This document shows, piece by piece, positions 1 through 14,536 of a DNA stretch of 24,154 bases. Position 1 is the first letter of the stretch, and each line of letters starts with the position of its first letter. A program made the position numbers and the translations under genes. Under the pieces are notes generated by a model, which saw only the letters and a list, made by a program, of their open reading frames with translations, did not search any database and was not told where the DNA came from. The DNA comes from a virus. Lineage: Duplodnaviria; Heunggongvirae; Uroviricota; Caudoviricetes. The stretch is from the IMG/VR virus record IMGVR_UViG_2684622510_000004; one strand, given 5' to 3'.

Positions 1-1203
1 ATGTCTCTTCGTTTCAGACAAACCTTTACTCTATTTCCTGGCGTTCGACTCAACATTGGCAAGCGTGGAATAAGTGCAAGCATTGGCGTGCCTGGCGCAA
101 CTGTCAATGTTGGTAAAAAAGGGGTTAGAGCAACTGTCGGATTACCGGGCACAGGCTTATCTTATACTACACCTACCTTGCCCTATGATGATGGATACTC
201 AGTTACCAATCCATTAAATCCAGCCCCTACAGAACCTCATTTGGGGTCTGGGTCATCTCCAGAAAATACACCATCGAACGCTAAAATATATATGCCTGTA
301 GCTGGCATGAATGAAATATCCAGCGCTTCGGTAGAAGTCCTTACAAGTACCTCCCTTTTACCTTTACGAGATTTGATTGCTAAAGCACGAGAACAAAGAG
401 CAGAAATAAAAGCAGATCTTCAAGAGGCTCTTGCCGAAGAATCAAAACAAAAAAGCGAGCTAGCTCGACGCAAATCAAGTCTATTCCGTTGGTTTTACAA
501 ACGACGCATCGCAGAACTTGAGACACTACTCCCCCTAACCCAAGCTGAGATATCTCGCCTAGTTTCATGGGAAGACAGCACAAAAATAGCCATAACATTC
601 GAGAGCAGTGATGCTTCACAGCGCGCATATGCAGCGATGGTCCATGCATTTGATATGTTAAAATCGAGTGTCAAAAAATGGGATATTACTGCAGATAAAG
701 CTACAGACCAGTTTGCTGAAAGAACATTAGCAACCCGGTCTGTTAATCGTCACCCAGTTACCTTTGATTTTAGTTCAACGGATCTCATTCAATTTACAGG
801 GCGTGCGATGAGGTTTGAAAATGTGAATGGAGACGATATTTTGCTTTATCCTGGAGTTGCAGTCATACCACGAGCTGATGGAGCATTCGCTCTGATTGAT
901 TTACGCGAATTACAAATTAGTTCAGAATATCTAAGATTCCATGAGGAAGAAGGTGTTCCCAGTGACTCACGCATAGATGGTTATACATGGGCGAAAACGA
1001 ATAAGAATGGCTCACCAGACCGTCGTTTTAAAGATAACTACCAAATCCCTATTTGCATTTATGGAAATATTACTTTCCATTCTCAAACAGGGGTAACTGA
1101 AGAATATATGGTATCAAATGCAGATGCCGCGCACGCCTTTGCTGAGGCAGTAAAACGCTATCAGATTTCACTCACAGAAACAGAAGCGTTGGTACAGGCC
1201 TGA
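1..1203 (+). CDS. DUF4236-domain protein, function unknown
   Basis: 400-aa ORF beginning with ATG at window nt 1. N-terminal ~55 aa (MSLRFRQTFTLFPGVRLNIGKRGISASIGVPGATVNVGKKG...GLPGTGLSYT) matches the glycine-rich DUF4236 signature as I recall it; the rest is unrecognised. Confidence 0.6.
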   Translation: MSLRFRQTFTLFPGVRLNIGKRGISASIGVPGATVNVGKKGVRATVGLPGTGLSYTTPTLPYDDGYSVTNPLNPAPTEPHLGSGSSPENTPSNAKIYMPVAGMNEISSASVEVLTSTSLLPLRDLIAKAREQRAEIKADLQEALAEESKQKSELARRKSSLFRWFYKRRIAELETLLPLTQAEISRLVSWEDSTKIAITFESSDASQRAYAAMVHAFDMLKSSVKKWDITADKATDQFAERTLATRSVNRHPVTFDFSSTDLIQFTGRAMRFENVNGDDILLYPGVAVIPRADGAFALIDLRELQISSEYLRFHEEEGVPSDSRIDGYTWAKTNKNGSPDRRFKDNYQIPICIYGNITFHSQTGVTEEYMVSNADAAHAFAEAVKRYQISLTETEALVQA

Positions 1204-2757: not shown

Positions 2758-2883
2758 GTACGGAGGATTTGTTATTGTACAACTCTTCTATCTGGTATAT
2801 TTACGGATAGAACTGTTCAGGCTACTCAATCCTTTTTAAGTACAAATGAACAGATAGAAATAGTTATATTGCAAGGAGCTATC

Positions 2884-3672
2884 ATGCACACTGAGTATAT
2901 ATGGCGATACCTTGACATAGAGAAATTCTCTATGTTACTCGAACAAAATGCTTTATTTTTTTGCTCAGCAAAAAATTTTGAAGATCCGTTCGAAGGTGAA
3001 TTTGCTTGGGGACATACTGGCTATAAAAAATTCATTGAGACACAGGAAAAACTATGCGCTACTTATGGTGCCGGCATGGACTTAGATCCTTTCATTGCAT
3101 TCAATTTAAAGACACTTAAGGAAATAAGCGAGAGGACATATATAAGTTGCTGGCATTGTAACGAACATGAATCTGAAGCTATGTGGAAGCTGTATTGTAA
3201 AAACCCCGCTAAAGGCGTTGTCATAAAATCAAAGAAAAAAAACCTCCAAAGCCAACTTGAAAATAATAATCTAAACAAACTACAATTAAAACACGTAAAA
3301 TACGTCAAAAATTTCTGGATAAAACAATACAATCCAGAATCAGATGTATTCTTTAACAAGAGACCATCTTTCGAATACGAAAAAGAGTTTAGAGCTATTT
3401 TTCAAGAGAATACCTTTAACACTCCACCTGTAAAGGGAAAACTAGTCCCTGTATCTCTTAATAATCTGTTGGAAGAAATAAGGATTTCACCTTTCGCAGA
3501 TAAGGATTTCAAAAATGAAGTTTTACAAATTTCAAAAAAACATGGACTAGATCTGAAAGTCAAAAACTCTGAAATTGAAATGCATCCCATCATGCATGTT
3601 GAGGAAGAAATAATTGCAGAAGGCCCCAATTGGTATCAGTCAAAAATCAGATTGGCAATACGTGATGCTTAA
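2884..3672 (+). CDS. DUF2971-like hypothetical protein (AT-rich accessory gene)
   Basis: AAGGAG at 2873-2878 with a 5-nt spacer to ATG 2884. N-terminal motif ...LFFCSAKNFEDPFEGEF resembles the DUF2971 'FxDPFE' signature. Visibly AT-rich compared with flanking genes, convergent with tfa. Confidence 0.55.
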   Translation: MHTEYIWRYLDIEKFSMLLEQNALFFCSAKNFEDPFEGEFAWGHTGYKKFIETQEKLCATYGAGMDLDPFIAFNLKTLKEISERTYISCWHCNEHESEAMWKLYCKNPAKGVVIKSKKKNLQSQLENNNLNKLQLKHVKYVKNFWIKQYNPESDVFFNKRPSFEYEKEFRAIFQENTFNTPPVKGKLVPVSLNNLLEEIRISPFADKDFKNEVLQISKKHGLDLKVKNSEIEMHPIMHVEEEIIAEGPNWYQSKIRLAIRDA

Positions 3673-3775
3673 TCTTATATTGAAGTTTTTTATGTCTCCT
3701 GCTGAAACTAGCTAAAATTTACCAAGCCGCAGCACGTTATTGCATACAACGTGTATGCGGCGTATCTCAAAACGA

Positions 3776-4360
3776 TTACTCCATAACAGGGACAGCAGGC
3801 CACTCAATATCAGGTGCAGTTGATGTATCAACACGGTTCAGCAACACCCGATACTTTTTCCAGGCTTCCAGCAACGAGGTTTCTCCCTCCGTTGCGATTT
3901 CCAGATCTGCAGCATCCTGAAGTGGCGCAATATGCTCACTGGCTACCTGCATCAGGCTATTTTTTGTTTCTTCCGCCTCCCGGATCCGGAACAGTTTTTC
4001 TGCTTCTGCATCTTTCACCCAGGTTGTGCCGTTCCACTTCTGAAACTCCCCTTCCGGGGATAACCAGGTGACATTTTCCGGTAATGAGCCGAGTTCAGAA
4101 ATAAATAACGCGTCGCCGGAAGCCACGTCATAGACGGTTTTACCCCGATGGTCTTCAACGAGATGCCACGATGCCTCATCACTGTTGAAAACAGCCACAA
4201 AGCCAGCCGGAATATCTGGCGGTTCAATATCGGTACTGTTTGCTGGCAGACCTGTATGAGGCGGAATATATGCGTCACCTTCACCAATAAATTCATTAGT
4301 TCCGGCCAGCAGATTATAAATTTTTATGGTCCGTGGTTGTTCACTCATTCTGAATGCCAT
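3776..4360 (-). CDS. tfa: tail fiber assembly protein (Tfa family)
   Basis: 194-aa product [34 protein letters not shown]... typical of lambdoid Tfa chaperones. ATG overlaps the stf stop (TAATG) at 4358-4362. Confidence 0.85.
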
Positions 4361-7125
4361 TATGCAAGCCTCACAATGTAGTTAAATGCGATGTTTTTGA
4401 CGGTGTTTTCCGCGTTACCAGCAGCGTTAACGGTGATGGTGTGTCCATGTGAGCCAATCGCAACAGAGTGCGTATGAGCACCAATACCGACAGTATGTGC
4501 GTGAGCACCTGCAGATGCAGCTGTGCCGCTGACACTATGAGTGTGCGCTCCTGCAGCACTTGTATTCACACTGGCCGCAGACACTACCTTATGTACTGAC
4601 CCATTTTGTGACCACTGGCTGACTGCTGATGCGCCTGTGACACTATGAGTATGGTTTCCGGCACTTGCGGCTGTACCGCTCACACTGTGCGTATGCGCCC
4701 CGGTGTTATTCGTGGATTTAGTGCCGTAATCAAACGACGATGTGGTTTTCGTCCCCAAATCCGTACTGGATGCGCTGGCGCTGTGGGTGTGCGATTTAAT
4801 GCCGTCCTGTTCCTGAGACAATACGGCCCGACCACTGGCAGGTTTGCCCTTAATCGTCCAGCCACGCATATCAGGGATCACGCCTGACGGATAAGCGGTT
4901 GCAAGTTTCGGGTAAGCAGATTTGTCAAAAGTCTGCCCCTGCATCAGGGCATAACCAGACGGAACGGTATCTGATGGCCACGGGATTGGTGCGCCAGGCG
5001 GATAAAACTGCTCTGATGGCGTATAGAGTGAATAAACTGTACCGTCCGTTAACCCTTCCGGCTTATTAGCAGAATATGCTGGTGACGTATGAATAGTCAC
5101 GCTGGCATTACTGGTATAATCCCATTGAATATTTACACCAGTCGCATAATTTCCGATTGCAACGTAAATATCGTAAGTATCACCAGATGTATTGACCCAG
5201 GCAAAATTTGTAAACCCTGTCGATGTGCGCTGCCATAAAGCACCAGTAATCCCCTTCGGATTACCATTACCTGCACGCAAAACAAGTTCAGATATACCTG
5301 CCTGTTGAGGTGACCCCACGTTAAATCCCGCGCCACCAATCAACGTAATTGAAACAACAGAACTCGCCTGTGGCATGGTTACCGTTGCTAATTTGAACCA
5401 ACCAGCACCACCGCTGAATGACATTGTTGTTGAGTTAAGCGTACCAATATCTTTCGGCGTCAGTGTTATATCCGCTGAAAGCGCCTTACCATTCACCTTA
5501 CGGGCAGAAGGTACCCGACCATTCGCATTATCATTAGCTGCTTTCACTGCTTTCGGTGTCGCGGCAAGCGTTTCAGATGCGCTGTTGGTTGCACTACTGA
5601 GCTGGACAATTCCTTTTTGTGCTGTCGTAGCGTCCTGAGCGGTATATTTCCCGTTAGCAAGGTCATAGGCTGCCTTTACCGACTTTGGCGTTGCCGCCAG
5701 CATTTCAGATGTGCTGTTGGTCGCGCTGCTGAGCTGAACTATCCCTTTCTGTGCTGTCGTTGCATCCTGTGCGGTGTATTTCCCGTTAGCCAGGTCATAC
5801 GCGGCCTTAACGGCTTTTGGCGTTGCCGCCAGTGACTCGGAAGTGCTGTTAGTCGCACTGCTGAGCTGTACTATCCCCTTTTTCGTCGTGCTCGCATCCT
5901 CAAGCGCCACGGCGGATGCAATATCCTCTGCCCGTTTTGCCGCTGTCTCAGCGCGCGTTGCTGCGGATTCTGCCGTACTTTTGCTCTGTGCTGCCGCTGC
6001 CGCACTGCCAGCAGCCTCTGTCGCCTTCGTGGATGCCGTCGTGGCGCTGCCCCTCGCTGCTGACGCCTGTCTGGTCGCCTCATCTTTTGAAGCAGACGCC
6101 GATGAGGCCGATGACGCCGCCGAACTGGCGGACGATGCGGCAGCCGTTTTTGAGGATTCTGCGCTGGTTTCCGACGCTTTCGCGTTCGTTTCGGATGTCT
6201 TCGCTGCGGAAGCTGACCTCGCTGCTGCGCTGGCCTGTTCAGTGGCTTCGCCAGCCTTCGTTGTGGCTGTTGAAGCGGATGATGCGGCGCTTTCTGCCGA
6301 TTTTCCGGCGGCGATGGCACTGGCTGAGGCCTGTCCGGCACTTGTTGACGCGGCACTGGCAGACGACGCAGCCGCTGTTTTTGAGCCTGCCGCAGCTGAG
6401 GCGCTCTGTCCCGCTGCCGTCTCAGAAGACCTGGCGTTTGTCTCAGACGTCCTTGCCGCCTTCGCGGAATTTCCTGCCGCCGTTGCCGAGGAAGCTGCAC
6501 TACTGGCGCTTGATGATGCGTTCGTTTCTGATGATTTTGCCGCCTCTTTTGAAGCCGACGCATCCCAGGCTGAGGTGGCAGCTTCTGACGCTTTCGTGGT
6601 CGCGGTGGATGCAGAAGTGGCGGCTGATTGTTCTGACGCTGCCGCATTCGTTTCTGACGTTTTCGCCGCACCGGCACTGGTAGCCGCCGCGCTTTTTGAG
6701 GACTCTGCAGCGGCAGCACTTTTTGAGGCTTCAGTGGCCTTTGTTGATGCCGTTCCTGCGCTGGAAGACGCTGACTGAGCCGACGACGCGGCCTGTCCGG
6801 CTGACGTGCTGGCTGCACGTGCTGAATCTGCAGCATCAGTCGCACGGGTTGCCGCCTCACTGGCAGATGTGCTGGCATCACTGGCTGACTTCTTTGCGGC
6901 TGCCGTGTTCTGTGCCACCACGGACGCGTTACGCGCCACCTCTTCCACCATCAGTTCAAAACGACGCAGTGCCTCCGGACGGGCATCATCCTCCGTCATG
7001 GCACCGAGAAAATCATTCAGCGTACCGGGTTGAGAATCTTCATACACGGTGATGGTCCCGGCATGTGACGGCGGGAATCCCTCCACCAACAGAATAACGC
7101 TGTACTGACCGTACTCAACGTCCAT
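4360..7125 (-). CDS. stf: side tail fiber protein (Stf-like), N-terminally truncated remnant
   Basis: 921-aa Ala/Ser-rich product with three 44-aa tail-fibre repeats ([37 protein letters not shown]) and a His-rich [10 protein letters not shown]-terminus. The first in-frame Met (MDVEYGQYS) corresponds to an internal position of full-length Stf, and an in-frame stop lies 5 codons upstream. Confidence 0.8.
5500..5895. repeat. three tandem ~132-bp repeats inside stf
   Basis: Period 132 bp read directly (e.g. gctgttgg at 5581-5588 and 5713-5720; gtgctgtt at 5711-5718 and 5843-5850). These encode the repeated 44-aa tail-fibre units. Confidence 0.75.
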
Positions 7126-7625
7126 GCTGTAACGCCCGGCTTCTCAATAGCTGCCAGCAGCGGGCTAATCCACAGAATGGCCTGACAATACGTTATTGAG
7201 CGGGTGGTAACGGCGCTATCACTGGCTGCGTCAACGTTCCTGGAATCGGTGTGCATTGCGCTGGCACGTAAACGGTTCGCGTAGTTGAGCAGCCCACCAG
7301 CGACATCAGCAGGAACAGGCATATCACAGGTTTTTTCACGACGGAGAATCTCTCGGTATTCGATAACAGTTTTCTCGGTGCCGGTATCAATCAGCGAGTT
7401 AAGACGGTTGGTGTTCTCTGCTACCAGGTTAAACCGGTTGAAGTTGAAGGCTTGGGTAGCTATGACGGTCGCCTGTAGCGCGTTGTCGCTGCGCAGTACC
7501 CGGATGTCACTTTCAGATATGGTCAGTGCTGCATTGCTGCGTGCCAGCAGAACACAGAGCACCGCGATGATAATTACGACAACCACCAGCAGAACCGCAA
7601 TAATCGCAATTTTGTTGGGTTTCAT
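7017..7625 (-). CDS. Rz-like i-spanin; 3' end reads into stf-derived sequence in another frame
   Basis: N-terminal TM anchor ([27 protein letters not shown]) followed by a coiled-coil periplasmic region. Start overlaps the endolysin stop (TGATG). After about codon 160 the ORF is translating the stf junction region. Confidence 0.5.
7193..7339 (-). CDS. Rz1-like o-spanin lipoprotein embedded in the +1 frame of Rz
   Basis: GTG start gives [17 protein letters not shown] (lipobox LVGC) followed by a Pro-rich mature peptide ending ...APLPPAQ, entirely inside Rz. The start codon choice is my inference. Confidence 0.5.
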   Translation of the reverse strand: MKKPVICLFLLMSLVGCSTTRTVYVPAQCTPIPGTLTQPVIAPLPPAQ

Positions 7626-8191
7626 CAGAACACTCCCGGCGTTGTTGCAGGCGTTCCAGGGTTAAGTGGCCCAAATCCATCGTTGAGATTTTGCGGATTC
7701 TCACCCCACAGGCAAACTTCGCGCTCAATCTCGCGGCGGGTGATCAGTCCTTTCCACTGCTTACCGCCAGCGTATGTCCAGCGACGTAGCTGGTCACATG
7801 CGCCTTTGATATCACCCTGGTTTATTTTGCGAAGAAGCGTCGATGTTCTGAAATTGCCAGCACCCACGTTGTAAACGAACGAGTAAAGAGCGCCGCGCGT
7901 TGTTTCCGGTATATCGACTTTGATGTACGGGTTAATTTGTCTGGCGACAGTGGCAAGGTCTTTATTCAGGAGGGCTTTGCATTCTGCTTCGGTATACGTT
8001 TTACCGAGCATAATGTCTTTTCCGGTGTGCCCGTAACATACAGTCCATACGCCAACGATATCTTTATATGGTATGTAGCTGACACCTTCCAGACCATCGT
8101 CACCACTCGGACCAGTGATGAGCACAGACGCTATGGCAACAGCCCCACCACCAATAGCAGCTGCAACAGCCTTGCGTAATGATGGCGACAT
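7625..8191 (-). CDS. SAR endolysin (T4-lysozyme type, GH24; phage 21 R-like)
   Basis: N-terminal signal-anchor-release segment ([18 protein letters not shown]) and the E-x8-D-x5-T catalytic triad ([17 protein letters not shown]). Start overlaps the holin stop (TAATG). Confidence 0.85.
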
Positions 8192-8406
8192 TATTCACCT
8201 CTCGCAGCCTTACGCTTATCTTCTTTAATCTTGAAATAAAGGTTTGTCAGGTACGTCAGCAGGCCAAATACCAGACTACCCAGCACACCTATTGCCGCCC
8301 ACTGTGATGGCGTGACTTTATCGAGCAACTGTAAAAACCAGTAGCCAGCACTGCCTGCAGAGGTGCCATAGGCGACACCTGTTGTTAACTTATCCATTGA
8401 TTTCAT
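8191..8406 (-). CDS. class II pinholin (phage 21 S21-like, dual-start MKSM motif)
   Basis: 71-aa product [71 protein letters not shown] closely resembles S21 as I remember it. RBS GAGGTGG lies upstream of ATG 8406. Confidence 0.8.
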
Positions 8407-8473
8407 AACCCCACCTCGCAGATGCGGGTGCTGTGTAATGGAAATAAAAAGGCCACCTGACGTGGCCACCAGA

Positions 8474-9526
8474 TTATTTCCCCACCAGCTCGTTTATCTC
8501 TTTCACCGTCTGGTTAAACCGCTCTGACTCAAGCTCAACACCTAAGGCCCGACGCCCCAGCGCCATTGCTGCTTTTATTGTGGAACCGGATCCCATAAAA
8601 AAATCAGCAACCAGATCACCAGGTCGACTACTGGCATTGATTATTTGCCGGAGCATATTCGCAGGTTTCTCACACGGATGTTTACCCGGGTAGAACTGAA
8701 CGGGTTTATGCATCCAGACATCGGTATAAGGCACGGAGACTGATACGGAGAAATAGCGCCGGAGAGATTTAAACTCATCCAGCAATTCAGAATATTTGCG
8801 ATTCAGTGAATTATAAGATGCCACCAGTTGGTGGTGTGGTTGTTCCAGTTGTTGTTCCTGAAACTTCTCTGCCGCTATACGGGAAAACAGTGCCTGTAAC
8901 TTCCGGTAGTCAGCCTCATTCGGCAACTGCCACTGACTGGCACCAAACCAGTGGGAAACCATATTTTTCTTACCTGTGGCTTCGGCAATCTGTTTTGCCG
9001 TTATACCCAGTTCGGCACGAGCATCCCTGAAATACGATATCAGCGGTGCCATTATGTGCTGTTTGAGTTCCCTTTCTTTTGCCGCATAGCCGTCACTTTT
9101 GCCGCGATATGGCCCCTGGTAATGTTCAGCAAACAGAACGCGCTCTGTGGCAGGAAAATATGCGCGCAAACTTTCTTTATTACACCCATTCCAACGTCCG
9201 GACGGCTTCGCCCAGATGATATGGTTAAGCACATTGAAACGTTCACGCATCATGATCTCGATATCAGATGCCAGGCGATGTCCACAGAACAGGTAAAGGC
9301 TTCCGGCAGGTTTCAACACCCGCCAGAACTGGGCCAGACAGTGGTCCAGCCACTTAAGGTAATCTTCGTCCCCTTTCCACTGATTGTCCCAGCCGTTGGG
9401 CTTCACTTTGAAGTACGGTGGATCGGTAACAATCAGATCAATGGAGTCATCAGGCAGGGACTGAATAAAATGCAGGCAATCAGCGTTGATTAAATCAACA
9501 CTGTTTATTTTTACAGTATTTTTCAT
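8474..9526 (-). CDS. DNA N6-adenine methyltransferase (orphan, phage-type)
   Basis: 350 aa with a DPPY catalytic motif near the N-terminus (VTDPPYF) and an AdoMet-binding FxGxG motif near the C-terminus (DFFMGSGST). Confidence 0.85.
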
Positions 9527-14048: not shown

Positions 14049-14536
14049 TACGCCCCCACGTAATTCCCTGACAGATACCACTCATCACCCGATACAGCGC
14101 GCTTGCTGCTTTTCCGTAAACACTGCTCACGACGCGCCAGAAAATTGTTTCGTTCTGGCTGGGAGTGGCTTTCACGGAATGCCGCCATCCACACCGTTGC
14201 AGCACGACGGTATAAGCCCCTGGACTCCAGTTTTTCAGCCTGGCGGGTCAGGCACAAAATCACCCGGGGATCGTTAGTGCCGACATAGAAATTGCGCACA
14301 GATCTGGTTTCTCGAACTGGTTGTGGTTCCAGTTCCTGCGCTCTCTCAGTCAGGCGCGGGAAATGTCTGCGTGTATCCCCTTCACAACGGTGAGCCACAC
14401 GCCCACTCTGACGTAACTTGCTTGCTGACTGCAGAACGCGCTGCCGTGAGTAACCAGCAAAAGCATCCGCAATGTCTCCGGAAGTACACCCCGGATGGGC
14501 TTCAATGAATTTCTGAACGTCATTCAAAAGACTCAT
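14048..14536 (-). CDS. PerC-family (Pch-like) putative transcriptional activator
   Basis: C-terminal motif AEKLESRGLYRRAATVWMAAF...ARREQCL matches the PerC hallmark (LE.KGLYRRAA..W) as I recall it; the N-terminal ~60 aa look like a winged helix. Confidence 0.45.
   Translation of the reverse strand: MSLLNDVQKFIEAHPGCTSGDIADAFAGYSRQRVLQSASKLRQSGRVAHRCEGDTRRHFPRLTERAQELEPQPVRETRSVRNFYVGTNDPRVILCLTRQAEKLESRGLYRRAATVWMAAFRESHSQPERNNFLARREQCLRKSSKRAVSGDEWYLSGNYVGA

Follow-up and report, generated by a model that had tools for sequence, protein, structure and literature searches.

What does an intact, AT-rich and apparently foreign gene do near one end of a decayed lambdoid prophage, just beyond the tail fibre genes? 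The question is raised by a 24,154-nucleotide (nt) stretch of Caudoviricetes DNA (IMG/VR record IMGVR_UViG_2684622510_000004; the whole of this stretch is called the window below), in which a gene at positions 2884-3672 of the plus strand, running from ATG to TAA over 262 codons, encodes a 262-aa protein of the DUF2971 family. Part of the answer is already known, namely the RefSeq DUF2971 label, the status of a PADLOC candidate, one family member validated as anti-phage, and a published prediction of an ADP-ribosyltransferase (ART) fold. On balance, we lean towards the view that the gene encodes an antitoxin-less, single-gene anti-phage enzyme with an ART fold, which depends on nicotinamide adenine dinucleotide (NAD+) and is carried as prophage cargo.

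Family membership and conserved residues

The protein matched the Pfam family DUF2971 (PF11185) at 30.8 bits, where the gathering threshold is 22 (E value 7.7e-7), residues 100-170 being aligned to profile positions 1-88 of 89. The RefSeq product name is likewise 'DUF2971 domain-containing protein'. All four hidden Markov models (HMMs) of the PADLOC candidate system PDC-S31 were matched (PDLC04993 at 2.7e-20, PDLC04994 at 4.9e-11, PDLC04991 at 1.9e-8 and PDLC04990 at 8.2e-8; these are E values, given without PADLOC's own score and coverage thresholds). The best of these models covered residues 80-233, and two models aligned from residue 5-7. The likeness to PDC-S31 thus consists of the complete set of HMM matches together with the single-gene architecture. 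A match to PHROG 34615, of unknown function, was also obtained (7e-28). No NCBIfam model matched the protein, and sequence searches of the PDB, with the protein itself as well as with a profile of 50 sequences, returned nothing even at E ≤ 10. When the profile of 50 homologues was run against a library clustered at 50% identity, 26,086 representative clusters matched at E ≤ 1e-3 and 5,699 at E ≤ 1e-30, from which it follows that the family is very large.

Conservation was examined in 148 representatives with mutual identity of at most 50%. Nine residues were invariant (D34, W90, W101, Y140, K159, E166, E168, R170 and P203), and W7, R8, Y9, D11, K14, E37, G38, C89, H91, E96, S97, A99, M100 and Y104 were conserved in at least 90%. 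Several family-wide motifs lie outside the Pfam envelope, namely W-R-Y, F-x-D-P-F-E-G, C-W-H, E-S-x-A-M-W-x-x-Y and E-x-E-x-R, and all of them are present in the window protein. An earlier note on this DNA, made without database searches, had associated a FEDPFE motif with DUF2971 and proposed a check with defence-system classifiers. The membership was confirmed at Pfam's curated cut-off, and the anti-phage suggestion was supported by the four PDC-S31 models. The motif itself (residues 32-37) proved to be a family hallmark, with D34 invariant and E37 among the residues conserved in at least 90%, and it falls outside the stretch covered by the 89-position Pfam model.

Predicted fold and candidate active site

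An AlphaFold2 model built from an alignment of 50 sequences reached a predicted local distance difference test (pLDDT) value of 93.7 and a predicted template modelling score (pTM) of 0.85, with no low-confidence segment. In a Foldseek search of the PDB, the six best matches were all DarT structures (from Thermus sp. 2.9 and M. tuberculosis; E values 2e-4 to 1e-2, probability 0.97-1.0), and no other significant match was found. In the fold ranking, DarT was followed by the RNA 2'-phosphotransferase Tpt1 (6.2) and an NAD-bound Salmonella effector (5.5), and the remaining matches formed a long tail, mostly of ADP-ribosylating toxins and PARPs. A search of viral folds in BFVD was uninformative, as it returned only uncharacterised proteins with template modelling (TM) scores of about 0.39 or below. 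According to the model, the protein would have an ART fold closest to that of DarT.

In ARTs, the motif III strand begins with a catalytic (E/Q)xE motif, and the first strand bears the motif I histidine or arginine. In the model, a split beta-sheet of the ART type is present and the invariant E166-x-E168 stands exactly at the start of strand 168-174. By strand order, the candidate active-site residues are R8 of the WRY motif on strand 1, S88-C89-W90-H91 followed by E96-S97...Y104, and E166-K-E168-F-R170; the second of these groups is placed on the strand and helix that follow a large two-helix insert (residues 44-83). From this model we infer catalytic activity and use of NAD+. A published bioinformatic analysis placed DUF2971 in the ART superfamily near DarT and AbiGi, and reported a poorly conserved motif I histidine, a conserved tyrosine, an ExE motif and helical inserts (PMC12522546). 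Our fold result agrees with that assignment.

DarT is the closest solved fold, and the two proteins share further traits. When compared by eye, the N-terminal strand-helix reads I-W-R-Y-L-D-I-E-K-F..LL in the DUF2971 protein and I-Y-H-I-T-H-I-D-N-L..IL in DarT, and both proteins have an acidic residue of catalytic type at the start of a late strand. The two also differ. The DUF2971 protein has an arginine at the presumed motif I position where DarT has a histidine, and an ExE motif where DarT has a single catalytic glutamate. The two-helix insert at 44-83 is unlike DarT, and so is an extra C-terminal region (175-262), which includes a clade-specific beta-hairpin at 237-259. Moreover, in contrast to DarTG, no DarG macrodomain antitoxin lies near the DUF2971 gene.

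Coding sequence and start codon

Stop codons are frequent in AT-rich DNA, and the probability of 262 stop-free codons at the gene's own base composition is about 8e-10 per start; the open reading frame (ORF) is therefore no chance feature. Its GC content is 34.2% (31.6% at third codon positions, GC3) compared with 48.8% for the window, and a 400-base composition profile falls to 0.32-0.36 exactly across the gene. A Shine-Dalgarno sequence, AAGGAG, can be read directly at 2873-2878 on the plus strand, 5 nt before the ATG at 2884. The AT-rich 262-aa gene with a good ribosome-binding site (RBS) described in the earlier note was thus recovered as such.

As for the start codon, a program-made ORF list begins the same ORF at TTG 2869, and the RefSeq/PGAP form is shorter (246 aa, starting at window position 2932). 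Homologues of exactly 262 aa with 78-82% identity share the start at 2884. Because the RBS precedes this codon, these homologues begin there and the conserved W7-R8-Y9 belongs to the N-terminus so defined, the start at 2884 is better supported than that at 2932.

The ratio of nonsynonymous to synonymous substitution rates (dN/dS) was 0.10-0.11 at a dS of about 1 when the gene was compared with its 81-82% homologues. This indicates purifying selection on the coding sequence while the gene was moving between unrelated mobile elements. In every host examined, the gene was distinctly AT-richer than its surroundings (GC 0.34-0.45 versus 0.40-0.65).

Homologues in other genetic contexts

The contexts of the homologues were diverse. 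In Enterobacter, a P2-like prophage has a homologue with 81% identity as its final gene, which follows gpD and ogr and stands beside host genes, with no DUF4236 gene (the outward neighbour of the DUF2971 gene in the window, see below) and no partner gene in this context. Another, with 82% identity, adjoins a fragment of an integrase, and the island that holds it also contains Mrr-like and MTase-HD genes. A gene for a colicin-type bacteriocin and the phage packaging genes for portal and terminase are found close to a 53% homologue, and a 50% homologue belongs to the early region of a Pseudomonas prophage that has another DUF2971 paralogue nearby. In Pseudomonas nitroreducens (CP101034.1), two DUF2971 paralogues of 220 aa and 259 aa (4248-4910 and 8001-8780) are located 3 kb apart in one prophage early region, adjoining a gene for an SMC_N/AAA_15 ATPase.

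In tblastn searches, plasmid homologues were detected in Bacillus, haloarchaea, Alteromonas and Bradyrhizobium. The sole match to the protein in the GenBank phage collection was a distant homologue (26% identity) of an Acinetobacter phage, encoded just upstream of the small terminase gene, which means that the gene occurs in no sequenced free coliphage. No neighbour was conserved across the homologue contexts examined. From this, it can be concluded that the gene stands alone and does not require an obligatory partner, as is the case for the single-gene candidate system PDC-S31. The DUF2971 gene would accordingly be autonomous, horizontally mobile cargo that, judging from these contexts, moves as a single gene between unrelated prophage types.

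The prophage and its tfa-distal slot

The window contains a decayed lambdoid prophage integrated at thrW. The attachment site, a tRNA-Thr(CGT) gene, lies at 22711-22786 next to the integrase gene (21533-22696), and is followed on the other side by a gene for a 417-aa protein of the aldehyde dehydrogenase family (22901-24154), which we take to be proA on account of its length, family and position beside thrW. The tail fibre assembly gene tfa occupies 3776-4360 on the minus strand (Caudo_TAP, 1.2e-43) and is the conserved element to which the hotspot is anchored. The gene for the side tail fibre, stf (4360-7125, minus strand), is truncated in its N-terminal domain, as it aligns to positions 51-134 only of the phage_tail_N profile. 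Directly next to stf come the lysis genes (Rz-like, lysozyme and holin, 7017-8469), and stf overlaps a 202-aa ORF adjoining lysozyme and holin. This truncation and the contact of stf with the lysis genes mark the prophage as decayed; genes for the head and the tail shaft are all missing from the window. A DNA methyltransferase gene (8474-9526; Type II MTase model, 6e-152) and the cargo are intact despite this decay.

The earlier note had placed the DUF2971 gene convergent to tfa at the distal end of the prophage. The orientation is as described (plus strand for 2884-3672, minus strand for tfa). As for the distal end, the integrase and thrW are indeed at the opposite end (21533-22786); the gene is, however, not the outermost one, since more cargo follows further out, i.e. 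the DUF4236 gene and, in relatives, a DUF6602 gene and others. Between the DUF2971 gene and tfa, a hairpin of about 13 bp is located at 3726-3761 (minus-strand segment -28.4 kcal/mol, z -2.6), and it is probably a bidirectional terminator.

We then considered how widespread the gene is at this position. Homologues of tfa and stf were found at 14,241 places in 5,248 of 5,426 complete E. coli genomes. The DUF2971 coding sequence was present in 122 of these genomes (2.2%), once in each, always on the chromosome and with 98.2-99.9% identity. The matches of other prophages to the corresponding locus of enterotoxigenic E. coli (ETEC) B7A begin at the equivalent of window position 3722 or of 3795-3798; the former is 54 nt past the stop codon of tfa and the latter just within the gene. 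The shared 54 nt hold the hairpin. Since it lies inside the shared segment (from about 3722), the hairpin at 3726-3761 marks the tfa-side edge of the exchangeable cargo. Alternative cargo at the same site, also convergent to tfa, was represented by RT_UG17 with SLATT (PADLOC DRT models, 8e-159 and 3e-57) and by a class I S-adenosylmethionine (SAM) methyltransferase. The expectation of a recurrent cargo site beyond the tail fibre genes, together with the presence/absence comparison proposed as its check, was thus supported by direct comparison of a handful of loci. The module with the DUF2971 gene occupies at least two chromosomal sites, thrW/pao (in the window and in avian pathogenic E. coli (APEC) E19057) and a site near torT (in B7A).

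In E. coli NZ_OW968277.1, the RT_UG17 and SLATT genes of the DRT system fill the tfa-distal slot at 3009-4908. The same locus encodes a 300-aa macro-domain protein between stf and tfa (5614-6516), where a domain that binds or hydrolyses ADP-ribose would not usually be expected.

A variable slot at a fixed position beside conserved late genes is also a feature of the P2 and P4 hotspots, of the lambda b-region morons and of the tail-fibre effector loci of enterohaemorrhagic E. coli (EHEC). Cargo hotspots of P2 and P4 were reportedly described by Rousset and colleagues in 2022, and EHEC prophages are known to have effector loci behind their tail fibre genes. Like known hotspots, the tfa-distal slot has a recognised defence system (RT_UG17 with SLATT) among its alternative occupants. 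What distinguishes the slot, i.e. the tfa-distal position of Rac/Qin-type lambdoid prophages with cargo convergent to tfa, is that its characterisation comes from few loci only.

Outward neighbours

On its outward side, the DUF2971 gene is preceded by ISEc20, an insertion sequence (IS) of the IS110 family at 1235-2704 on the plus strand, and by a gene for a 400-aa DUF4236 protein (1-1203, plus strand). ISEc20 begins 31 nt after the DUF4236 stop codon and ends 180 nt before the DUF2971 start; it was placed by comparison with the IS-free genomes APEC E19057 (NZ_CP126934.1) and ETEC B7A. A 17-bp insertion at 2357-2373 shifts the reading frame of its transposase, and the DUF4236/ISEc20 junction was found in none of the 5,426 complete E. 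coli genomes. The IS110 family is of the RNA-guided type. The copies of ISEc20 in the window and in O111:H- 11128 adjoin the same right flank, ACCCCCCTA, and a phage tail fibre gene adjoins the O111 copy as well. ISEc20 may therefore favour a particular target motif in the tail fibre-distal regions of prophages.

Between the DUF4236 and DUF2971 genes, a stable, terminator-like hairpin without a strong U-tract is present at 2729-2758 on the plus strand. The segment 2705-2790 has a folding energy of -22.6 kcal/mol (z -3.2), and none of 200 shuffled sequences was as stable. The hairpin is kept downstream of the IS and is also found in the IS-free genomes, which suggests that the DUF2971 gene forms its own transcription unit.

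The DUF4236 gene was found in 122 E. coli genomes, the same number as for DUF2971. Only a 55-residue N-terminal DUF is recognisable in its product, which matches PHROG 17982 over its full length (3e-194); no macro, NADAR, ARH or other domain and no PDB or PADLOC signal was detected. Homologues with 32% identity follow the large terminase gene of Microcystis phages, where all neighbours are annotated as hypothetical and none is named DUF2971. The literature on DUF4236 yielded only unrelated matter. We considered DUF4236 as a hidden antitoxin or hydrolase and rejected it as an obligatory partner, as it has no domain signal and is not linked to DUF2971 in the other hosts examined or in Microcystis phages; it is treated here as neighbouring cargo.

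In APEC E19057 and B7A, the island extends further outward with a DUF6602 protein whose N-terminus matches a PD-DExK nuclease, and APEC E19057 also has a 604-aa PDC-S71 candidate (9e-218). The island genes lie at 2782-4596 and 5820-7136 in APEC E19057 and at 5833-7212 in B7A. With the PDC-S71 candidate and the PD-DExK protein outward of DUF4236, the prophage end resembles a small defence island, of which the DUF2971 gene forms part.

Proposed function of the DUF2971 protein

The favoured reading of the gene as a single-gene anti-phage system draws on the PADLOC candidate status described above and on the analogy with Aristaios, by which a defence role may be proposed. Aristaios, a 316-aa DUF2971 protein encoded by the Lactococcus plasmid pUCCL641 (Grafakou et al. 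2024), is a validated single-gene, Abi-like system with a predicted ART fold (PMC11381338). It impairs phage transcription (PMC11381338, PMC13064643), and escape mutants could not be selected (PMC12184496). Aristaios and the window gene share the Pfam family, an ART-like predicted fold, a single-gene organisation and residence on a mobile element. On the other hand, Aristaios is 54 residues longer and comes from a Gram-positive plasmid, while the window gene comes from an enterobacterial prophage.

By this analogy, the product would be a cytoplasmic enzyme of about 31 kDa with the ART fold of the DUF2971 family. In a lysogen, it would be present at a low level in an inactive or harmless state. 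When a heterologous phage infects, the enzyme would draw on NAD+ and attach ADP-ribose to a target on which phage gene expression or replication depends; the infection would be aborted, and the lysogen population, hence also the prophage, would be protected. There is a precedent in DarTG, which acts against phages by ADP-ribosylating their DNA (LeRoux et al. 2022, cited in PMC11381338). The DarT/Tpt1-like predicted fold points weakly to nucleic acid rather than protein as the target. The R/ExE set of residues is found more typically in ARTs that modify proteins at arginine. As for the avoidance of self-toxicity, the C-terminal 90 residues might inhibit the enzyme, the substrate might be specific to phages, or expression might be low or limited by H-NS.

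Several observations weigh against the reading as an anti-phage enzyme. Some of them concern the link to DarT. The DarT family model (PF14487, DUF4433) gave no Pfam match even at E ≤ 10 and no PADLOC match at E ≤ 0.1, and the sequence and profile searches of the PDB gave no link to DarT. Profile comparison by hhalign with the DarT N-terminus yielded E values of 0.3-0.9 and probabilities below 1% in four settings; the DarT profile was made from the N-terminus of Thermus DarT in the PDB and its homologues (36 fragments of at most 149 aa, i.e. without the C-terminal third). One of these non-significant alignments pairs IWRYxDxxKFxxLL with IYHITHIDNLxxIL, and together with strand order it is no more than suggestive of an equivalence between R8 and DarT H13. 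The presumed motif I position on strand 1 is the arginine of WRY and not a DarT-type histidine, and the residues of the NAD+ pocket are assigned from strand order in the model, not from superposition. In addition, no macrodomain, ADP-ribose hydrolase or antitoxin was found among the neighbours DUF4236, ISEc20 and tfa. DarT-like toxins normally require an antitoxin. Because there is no sequence-level link and no adjoining hydrolase, the protein should not be filed as DarT; it is best described as an ART-like DUF2971 protein whose nearest solved fold, according to the model, is DarT.

The precedents and the fate of the gene in E. coli add to these counterarguments. PDC-S31 is only a computational candidate system, and we found no mention of it and no published phenotype in the literature. 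The tblastn search of plasmids returned no Lactococcus match at E ≤ 0.01, so that Aristaios and the window protein lie far apart in a family that comprises over 26,000 clusters. No consensus sigma-70 promoter was detected in a simple scan from the IS to the start codon (an extended -10-like sequence, TGGTATATT, at about 2793-2801 was noticed by eye only), and the ISEc20 copy 180 nt upstream could alter expression of the gene. Finally, the coding sequence contains a homopolymer of eight adenines (A8, 3235-3242, plus strand), which is in frame in the window. In a spread sample of 40 carriers, 12 had a length change (788 nt in 11 and 790 nt in one), and the three carriers that were fetched had A7, A9 or A6 in or near this tract and were frameshifted. 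The frameshifted copies end at about residue 125-129, before the ExE motif. The A7 allele carries several single-nucleotide polymorphisms common to several strains, indicating that at least part of the variation is inherited pseudogenization and not homopolymer read error. The gene is thus dispensable and has been repeatedly lost in E. coli. Such a loss pattern is common for costly defence genes and is also compatible with neutrality in E. coli. The length variation of the A8 tract could represent either simple decay or a slipped-strand on/off switch.

It must therefore be asked whether the gene has any function at all. It might be silenced, AT-rich baggage hitch-hiking in a decaying prophage, or encode a catalytically dead ART-like protein. 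The degraded state of the prophage (stf truncated at its N-terminus, tail and head genes absent), the length changes and frameshifts at A8, the arginine in place of the motif I histidine and the missing consensus promoter would all agree with this; moreover, DNA with 34% GC is a typical target of H-NS. Such a fate is nevertheless quite improbable, given that the comparison with the homologues from Enterobacter and from the island (dN/dS of about 0.1 over a dS of about 1) reflects long-term purifying selection, that nine columns including those of ExE-R are invariant in 148 diverse representatives, that the family matched by 26,086 clusters is very large and maintained, and that the window ORF is intact with a strong RBS. 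A function, in turn, might depend on partners if the gene were a component of a multi-gene module with DUF4236, the DUF6602 PD-DExK protein or an unannotated small antitoxin. DUF4236 and DUF2971 each occur in 122 genomes and are adjacent in every E. coli locus examined, DUF6602 stands next to the pair in both IS-free loci, and an antitoxin would be normal for a DarT-like toxin. The E. coli copies, however, represent one module with at least 98% identity, so that this co-occurrence counts as a single evolutionary event, and homologues with 81%, 82% and lower identity have neither DUF4236, DUF6602 nor any shared neighbour. A stable hairpin separates the two genes, and so does ISEc20 in the window, where the DUF2971 ORF is still intact. 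As DUF4236 also has no macro, NADAR or ARH domain or PADLOC match, and both PDC-S31 and Aristaios are single-gene systems, a multi-gene module is improbable.

Alternatively, the protein might serve the phage, in lytic growth or in lysogeny, as an ART modifying a host component, or act as a lysogenic-conversion or virulence factor, rather than defend the host. T4 Alt, ModA and ModB modify host proteins, and both the ART fold and the moron position at the prophage end, convergent to late genes and hence independently expressed, would suit such a role, as would the effector loci downstream of EHEC prophage tail fibre genes. Furthermore, about 18% of DUF2971 proteins are predicted effectors (PMC12522546), and a DUF2971 'effector' has been suggested in Legionella. 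On the other hand, the N-terminus of the window protein is charged (E4, R8, D11, E13, K14) and forms part of a conserved first beta-strand and helix, unlike a signal peptide, and the carriers, which include strains from chicken, pig, mouse, soil and water, show no pattern of pathotypes. The homologues on Bacillus and haloarchaeal plasmids and in non-phage islands are better explained by a generic cell-autonomous function, and the gene was kept intact while the structural genes of the prophage were lost. Taken together, a phage-serving or virulence role is unlikely, and we retain the anti-phage enzyme as the favoured reading.

A more far-reaching version of this reading can be formulated, which we regard as tentative and rather doubtful. 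The WRY...ExE clade, which includes the window protein, might constitute a distinct group of antitoxin-less nucleic-acid ARTs with a DarT-like fold and a catalytic set of the R-S-E type (R8, S88 or S97, and E166xE168), in which the C-terminal region 175-262 would inhibit the enzyme until a phage cue is received and phage DNA or RNA, and not protein, would then be marked. For E. coli populations, the A8 tract might in addition serve as an on/off switch. If true, this clade would represent a new solution to the problem of self-toxicity, which is solved in DarTG by a macrodomain.

Significance for the DUF2971 family

As an annotation, the result is modest. To our knowledge, Aristaios is the only member of the DUF2971 family with a phenotype, and we know of no substrate, trigger or catalytic mechanism in the family. 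An E. coli member that is intact, encoded by a single gene, confidently modelled and provided with clear candidate catalytic residues would make the family tractable by standard coliphage panels and genetics. In addition, the comparison shows that in Rac/Qin-type lambdoid prophages the junction distal to tfa is a cargo slot at which defence genes are exchanged. If the fold reflects ADP-ribosylation of nucleic acids without an antitoxin, the repertoire of NAD+-dependent immunity would be extended.

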